Shown here: piece by piece, positions 1 to 669 of the stretch | Numbering within the stretch: the stretch's first letter is position 1 | How the letters are laid out: every line of letters begins with the position of its first letter | Assembly (NCBI RefSeq): GCF_057098645.1 | Contig: NZ_CM169472.1 | Strand: one strand, 5' to 3' | Length of the DNA: 64,000 nucleotides | Notes under the pieces: model-generated | What the model was told of the DNA's origin: nothing | Database searches by the model: none | What the model saw: only the letters and a program-made list of their open reading frames with translations | Translations under genes and position numbers: made by a program

Positions 1-198
1 CACCGTATACCTTGTGATTTTCATCGTATACGCGCTGTATCTCTCTCTTCAGCCAGTCATCGCGCTGAGCACGGGCACTGCGTTTATCAGGATGATGTCG
101 CTGTTGCTGACAGTGGTAATACGTTGACGGGGCAATATGCAGTTCACTGCATACCGGTCCGACCCCGTACTGCTCACGCAGCTTATCCAGCAGCGGCA
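1..198 (-). CDS. IS3-family transposase OrfB, N-terminal part (continues beyond window)
   Basis: Reverse-strand translation of 121-198 gives LLDKLREQYGVGPVCSELHIAPST, typical IS3/IS629 OrfB N-terminus; overlaps orfA end as expected for -1 frameshift fusion. Confidence 0.75.
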
Positions 199-525
199 TT
201 ATTTTTTCCAGAGGCGGTCGAACTCCGCCTTCGCAAAATAAGCGGAAGCCTGGCGAAGGATATCGTTACTGCGGCGCAGTTCACGATTTTCACGTTCCAG
301 CTCTTTCAGACGCTGACGTTCAGCGGTGGTGAGTCCACCATCACCACTCCCGGTATCCCGCTCATGCTGACGAACCCACACACGCAGAGTCTCTGGTGTA
401 CAGCCAATCTTTGGGGCAATGGAACAAATTGCCGCCCATTGTGAGTCATATTCGCCCTGACTTTCCAGAACCATACGAACTGCCCGTTGACGGACCTCGG
501 GGGAAAAACGTGTATTTTTAGTCAT
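199..525 (-). CDS. IS3-family transposase OrfA (IS629-like), 108 aa
   Basis: [29 protein letters not shown]...; helix-turn-helix plus leucine-zipper-like C-terminus typical of IS3 OrfA. Confidence 0.9.
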
Positions 526-669
526 CCTGTTTACCTCTTTCTCAGGGAGTTTAGTCTCCAGGATTCCCGGGGCGGTTCAACCGGAAATCAAAACAACTGA
601 CGGCGAGGTGACTTGTGTTGGTCGCCAGAAAATGAAATTAGGCAGCAAACCACTTATTTGAGGTGAGAT

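Follow-up and report, generated by a model that had tools for sequence, protein, structure and literature searches.

In bacteriophage lambda, RNA polymerase modified by N resists terminators and classically overcomes Rho-dependent polarity. For the N protein of H-19B, C-terminal deletions differ in effect: the Δ121-127 protein is active, with 24.3% read-through at a distal terminator as compared with 31.8% for the wild type, whereas the Δ111-127 protein allows 5.8% read-through and is defective at the distal terminator (Muteeb et al. 2012, PMC3526286). Among Stx2a phages, insertions of IS629 at varied sites are a main driver of diversity (PMC4587872). Elements of this type have also been annotated as IS1203-like in O157:H7. 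VT2-F422, an Stx2a phage with such an insertion, gave an Stx2 titre of 80,000 after mitomycin induction, which is among the top two in Table 2 of PMC4645166. In O145:H28, short-tailed Stx2a phages use argW (PMC11333237).

We analysed a stretch of 64,000 nucleotides (hereafter the window; positions are counted from its first letter), whose left edge lies within an IS629-type element. This IS interrupts gene N of the H-19B/933W type at codon 118 of 127.

An IS629-type element at the left edge of the window

The element was resolved into the following parts.

1–579, minus strand: IRL-proximal 579 bp of an IS629-type element of the IS3 family (IS positions 732–1310 of 1310; gap-free alignment to full copies)
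555–579, minus strand: terminal inverted repeat IRL, TGAACCGCCCCGGGAATCCTGGAGA on the minus strand (read directly)
199–525, minus strand: orfA, 108 aa, the helix-turn-helix part of the transposase, intact (ORF list; PF01527, E = 1.4e-12)
128–244, minus strand: ALIL pseudoknot, the programmed -1 frameshift signal of orfA/orfB (Rfam RF01497, full-length match)
2–199, minus strand: first 66 codons of orfB, open and running off the window start (translation)

Gap-free alignment of positions 1–579 with the full 1310-bp copy in E. coli 14EC001 gave 575 identical positions, and that with the annotated IS629 of phage Stx2a_F422 (O157:H7) gave 551 (95.2%); the remaining 731 bp of the IS lie to the left of window position 1. 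[quoted passage not shown] A copy with the same identity in AP019707.1 is labelled 'IS629 transposase OrfA/OrfB' by its depositors, and the name IS629 is used here by identity to such depositor-labelled copies rather than to the ISfinder reference sequence.

OrfA matched positions 1–86 of the NF033516 profile and was identical to the OrfA protein of the 14EC001 copy. The ALIL pseudoknot scored 120.9 bits against a gathering score of 50 (E = 8.6e-32), and a 99.3%-identical copy carries the RefSeq annotation 'programmed frameshift'. Translation of orfB begins at 199 in the -1 frame relative to orfA; its visible 66 aa matched only positions 93–151 of NF033516, and the DDE (rve) catalytic domain would lie to the left of the window. 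Direct reading revealed that the IS terminus ...CCGGGGCGGTTCA, the reverse complement of the TGAACCGCCCCGG terminus, stops exactly at 579. The IRL begins with 5'-TG in agreement with the termini of full copies and resembles their opposite terminus at 22 of 25 positions by hand count; it is the single terminus within the window. The identity of the element, its parts and their geometry are beyond chance. An IS629-like element of the IS3 family had been proposed at 1–579 in an earlier note made from the sequence alone, and this proposal was confirmed by the 99.5% identity to the plasmid copies, by orfA, by the ALIL signal and by the terminal repeat.

The IS copy carries substitutions at positions 8, 13, and 14, that is, within 7 nt at the left window edge, which were private with respect to both full copies compared base by base. 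Two of them are synonymous and one changes Q to K in OrfB. These three substitutions account for the constant gap of three mismatches (99.5%) to the best plasmid copies, and the other 565 nt of the IS differ from the closest copies at one position at most. The part of the IS outside the window may derive from a more divergent IS629 relative, which would make this a recombinant copy.

The IS lies in the 3' end of gene N

The sequence that adjoins the IS on its right was assigned as follows.

580–611, plus strand: what is left of the antiterminator gene N at its 3' end, beginning with base 2 of codon 118 (TAC) and including the stop codon (identical to EDL933 L001:9001–9032)
612–669, plus strand: native 58-nt spacer that separates N from orf156 and carries the ribosome-binding site GAGGTGAGAT ahead of the ATG (the same in uninterrupted relatives)
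670–1140, plus strand: conserved lambdoid gene orf156, which comes after N in intact relatives (ORF list; the exact protein is found beside N in many prophages)

Homology to the 933W prophage of EDL933 begins exactly at window position 580, which corresponds to position 9001 of that locus (L001), where the 127-codon N ORF occupies 8649–9032. Since 580–611 reproduces the final 32 nt of the 933W N gene without a difference, the IS is located in N itself. The intact 127-aa N matches PF25694 (Pfam N_peptide) over residues 2–127. The last 14 codons of N occur as four alleles whose differences are synonymous only, which shows that the tail of N is under purifying selection. We found no sequence relative of N among solved structures, so that structure gave no indication of what the lost residues do.

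The earlier note had correctly placed the IS end at 579, 90 nt ahead of the ATG at 670, with transcription of the IS genes pointing away from the phage genes; relative to pL transcription, the transposase genes are in antisense orientation. The 90-nt distance is made up of the 32-nt N remnant and the 58-nt native spacer, so that the distance was right and the 3' end of N at 580–611 had been overlooked. The ORF at 670 had been mistaken for the first gene of the pL operon: in relatives without the insertion, the end of N is located 58 nt upstream of this ORF. Because N precedes orf156 in many intact relatives, in which the gene order is N, orf156, DUF2528 gene, cIII, kil, gam, bet, and exo, orf156 is the second gene of the operon. 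It had no match in Pfam or NCBIfam. The IS does lie, as had been proposed, between the N/nutL/pL side and the Red genes.

The closest relative (L014), in which N is intact, is 99.94% identical to window 580–7338 and differs at 4 of 6759 positions. Four ORFs that were checked are unchanged by these differences, and the fourth difference is intergenic. Such a small number of differences indicates that the region is otherwise intact and that the insertion event looks young. Another strain (L030), apparently identical, matched the window at 100% over 4819–9000; its draft assembly is fragmented in this prophage.

The IS–N junction was absent from 5,426 complete E. coli genomes searched by megablast with window segments 440–720, 1–2400, and 1–25000, and from 50,697 phage records, and the exact junction 30-mer was absent from the IMG/VR and JGI metagenome contigs. 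Look-ups of the exact proteins of orf156, the DUF551 gene, and DsdC returned only relatives in which N is intact or draft contigs that do not reach the IS. One match in 14EC001 resembled the same junction (one piece, 96.8%) and was rejected, as its IS lies at a different site, within an ORF located between N and orf156. The insertion at N codon 118 is thus at a site not found elsewhere in the genomes and phages searched; the type of event is already known and is routine in STEC.

The insertion is inside an argW prophage

To the right of orf156, the prophage continues with the distal genes of the pL operon and ends at a tRNA gene segment.

1291–1659, plus strand: DUF2528 gene, distal pL operon (Pfam match and annotation of relatives)
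1732–1896, plus strand: cIII, distal pL operon (for this and the next four genes, Pfam matches and the annotation of EDL933 and other relatives)
1865–2008, plus strand: kil, distal pL operon
2084–2380, plus strand: gam, distal pL operon
2386–3171, plus strand: bet, distal pL operon
3168–3848, plus strand: exo, distal pL operon
7050–7250, plus strand: torI-type excisionase gene at the prophage end (ORF list; the counterpart beside dsdC is annotated torI in RM9088 and UTME-3)
7324–7338, plus strand: attR core CTGCAGGGGACACCA, the last 15 nt of the tRNA gene argW and the right prophage boundary (comparison with argW of RM13514)

The attR core adjoins dsdC, and from 7324 onward the window agrees fully (100%) with O145:H28 chromosomes; its chromosomal part has 100% identity to genomes of E. 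coli O145:H28. The early-left region is 98.5–98.7% identical to that of Stx2a phages of the 933W family. By these sequence comparisons, the host prophage is a lambdoid prophage of the H-19B/933W type integrated at argW of an E. coli O145:H28 chromosome. The IS is situated about 6.7 kb inside the prophage as measured from attR. Phage sequence extends to its right over 580–7338, and the attR core at 7324–7338 rules out a location of the IS outside the prophage; its placement within the prophage in the earlier note is therefore upheld.

No integrase ORF was found between 6642 and dsdC, the interval containing only the torI-type excisionase gene and the 15-nt argW core, and ARAGORN detected no tRNA-Arg in 6642–7433. 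In KplE1/CPS-53-like prophages the integrase is located at the end opposite the excisionase. Since both the tRNA and the integrase are missing from the attR end, the intact argW and the integrase gene should sit at the far end of the prophage, outside the window. A truncation at the dsdC end, which the missing integrase might suggest, was ruled out: the argW prophages of RM9088 and UTME-3 have the same arrangement, with the torI gene by the attR core beside dsdC and no integrase between them.

Several other elements were recognized in the window. The lambda cIII thermoregulator RNA element was found at 1719–1777 on the plus strand, at the start of cIII, as a full-length match to Rfam RF01804 (88.5 bits). 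A terminator-like hairpin followed by a T run is present at 1243–1264 on the plus strand between orf156 and the DUF2528 gene, and its stem holds one of the four differences from L014, a G at 1245 instead of A. In the chromosomal part, tRNA clusters at 48765–48955 (two tRNA-Ala(GGC)) and 53401–53798 (three tRNA-Val(TAC) and one tRNA-Lys(TTT)) represent ordinary E. coli loci.

Origin of the junction

To obtain a base rate, we compared eight IS629-type copies, all full-length, from seven related prophages that carry them in their early regions. A perfect 3-bp target duplication flanks seven of them, and the eighth, in strain 99E2750, is without one. Because seven of the eight related copies have the duplication, a simple insertion of IS629 with a 3-bp ACC duplication is favoured, and we consider it the probable origin of the junction. 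Its right copy would be the following.

580–582, plus strand: ACC, predicted right copy of the 3-bp target duplication (inferred from seven related copies)

A simple insertion predicts that the 5' part of N, with the codons for its arginine-rich boxB-binding motif, as well as nutL and pL are present directly beyond the other IS end, about 731 bp to the left of the window. There, next to the TGAACCGCCCCGG terminus, ACC preceded by ...GCGGCAGGCT would be expected, the left N flank ...GCGGCAGGCTACC being followed outward by the rest of N.

Alternatively, the left side of the IS might join unrelated sequence as a result of an IS-associated deletion or rearrangement, so that the prophage would be a truncated remnant without N. 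Either an adjacent deletion or recombination between two IS629 copies could have removed the 5' part of N and nutL, and possibly pL and the immunity region as well. Exactly such a deletion is present beside an N remnant in strain 99E2750 (NZ_CP157170.1). There, the same IS variant in the same orientation abuts the 3' part of N at codon ~107, 33 bp upstream of the site in the window, so that the N remnant is 33 bp longer than that of the window; the target duplication is lacking, the other IS side is joined to sequence shortly downstream of a DUF3024 gene, and a deletion of several kb has taken the kinase gene and the 5' part of N. This lineage, plasmids included, moreover has many copies of IS629. 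A simple insertion would create an N::IS fusion protein of 140 aa, which is not on record; this is weak evidence for a deletion, as the source assembly itself is not in the databases searched. A second IS629 piece or displaced upstream phage DNA was not found elsewhere in the window. Against a deletion or rearrangement stand the seven of eight comparable copies that are simple insertions, as well as the 6.7 kb on the right, which is nearly unchanged relative to the intact relative and suggests a young event. We thus regard this origin as unlikely. It follows from the same comparison that the earlier note went too far in describing the element as truncating the early operon, since 99E2750 is the only one of the eight copies associated with a deletion of the 5' part of N.

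It is also conceivable that the real N is intact and that the assembly was wrongly joined at a multi-copy repeat, either at the IS–N junction or in the sequence beyond. IS629 is a repeat of the kind at which assemblies commonly break, and the draft of the apparently identical strain is indeed fragmented in this prophage. The junction coincides exactly with the IS terminus, as real transposition would have it, and the 579 bp of IS are contiguous with unique sequence, which is far more than the end of a short-read contig would contribute; moreover, the IS copy in the window carries three private substitutions. An assembly artefact is thus extremely improbable, and simple insertion is taken as the basis for the predictions given below.

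Predicted consequences for early transcription

A simple insertion would replace residues 119–127 of N by about 22 IS-encoded residues to give a 140-aa product that retains residues 1–118. N would also be separated from the genes orf156-cIII-kil-gam-bet-exo...torI by 1.3 kb of antisense IS RNA that is not translated. Should the altered N remain able to modify RNA polymerase at nutL, read-through of the IS would be expected, because N-modified polymerase resists terminators. Without this modification, the distal pL genes would be silenced by Rho-dependent polarity, and pR would yield less delayed-early and late expression.

We searched for signals that could modify this outcome. No promoter-like site facing the phage genes was found in 1–1400. 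In the full IS copy with its flanks, three terminator-like hairpins were found as compared with 1.5 ± 1.4 in shuffled sequence, which is no excess, and only one of the three is on the pL-sense strand inside the IS. Since intrinsic terminators are not in excess on the antisense strand of the IS, any polarity would be Rho-dependent.

The insertion in N could lower or abolish induction, excision, and, if the prophage carries stx, toxin production. The locus is thus of some use in typing strains and in forecasting the inducibility of the O145:H28 prophage; it holds no new element or mechanism. A more far-reaching idea is that IS629 elements repeatedly target, or are retained in, the pL operon of 933W-like prophages, always in antisense orientation, and that the insertion at N codon 118 is a selected attenuating allele. 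If so, N would be partially active, and expression of kil, cIII, the Red genes, and the excisionase, together with antisense silencing of the transposase, would hinge on read-through by N, in which case the insertion would reflect prophage domestication in progress, not neutral damage. The IS629-type copies seen in pL operons are all antisense to pL, which is a possible artefact of a search that joined same-strand pieces only. We consider selection of an attenuating allele very unlikely.

Comparison with known systems

The element in the window shares with IS629 the 1310-bp type, the TGAACCGCC termini, and orfA/orfB with the ALIL signal, and related copies show the 3-bp duplication; it differs in that only 579 bp are visible and in its private substitutions at 8, 13, and 14. 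In related prophages, IS629-type copies are present at the 3' end of kil, in gam, in orf156, upstream of N, and in cII. The 933W-like prophage of 99E2750 (L032) contains two IS629-type copies, at 2480–3789 and 5831–7140, one of which is a simple insertion in cII and the other the copy beside the N remnant described above.

The copy in VT2-F422 (AP012531.1) is in the same phage type and has the same orientation as that in the window, only about 100 bp further downstream. It is a simple insertion with an AAA duplication at codon 3–4 of orf156, so that in VT2-F422 N is intact and orf156 is broken, whereas in the window the last nine codons of N are lost and orf156 is intact. Since VT2-F422 is still highly inducible, an IS at such a place is not by itself a block to induction. 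This inducibility is not directly transferable to an insertion that alters N.

The earlier note had considered it probable that the IS disrupts N-dependent early transcription and had suggested that it may immobilise the prophage. The inducibility of VT2-F422 and the position of the predicted N allele among the deletions characterized in H-19B show that both statements go beyond the evidence, and it is uncertain whether the insertion would block the function of N. The N gene interrupted here is likened to that of H-19B solely by its length of 127 aa and an arginine-rich motif at residues 12–18 (RSRRRER). On this comparison, the allele predicted for the window, Δ119-127 with a foreign tail of about 22 aa, falls between the active Δ121-127 and the defective Δ111-127 proteins of H-19B.
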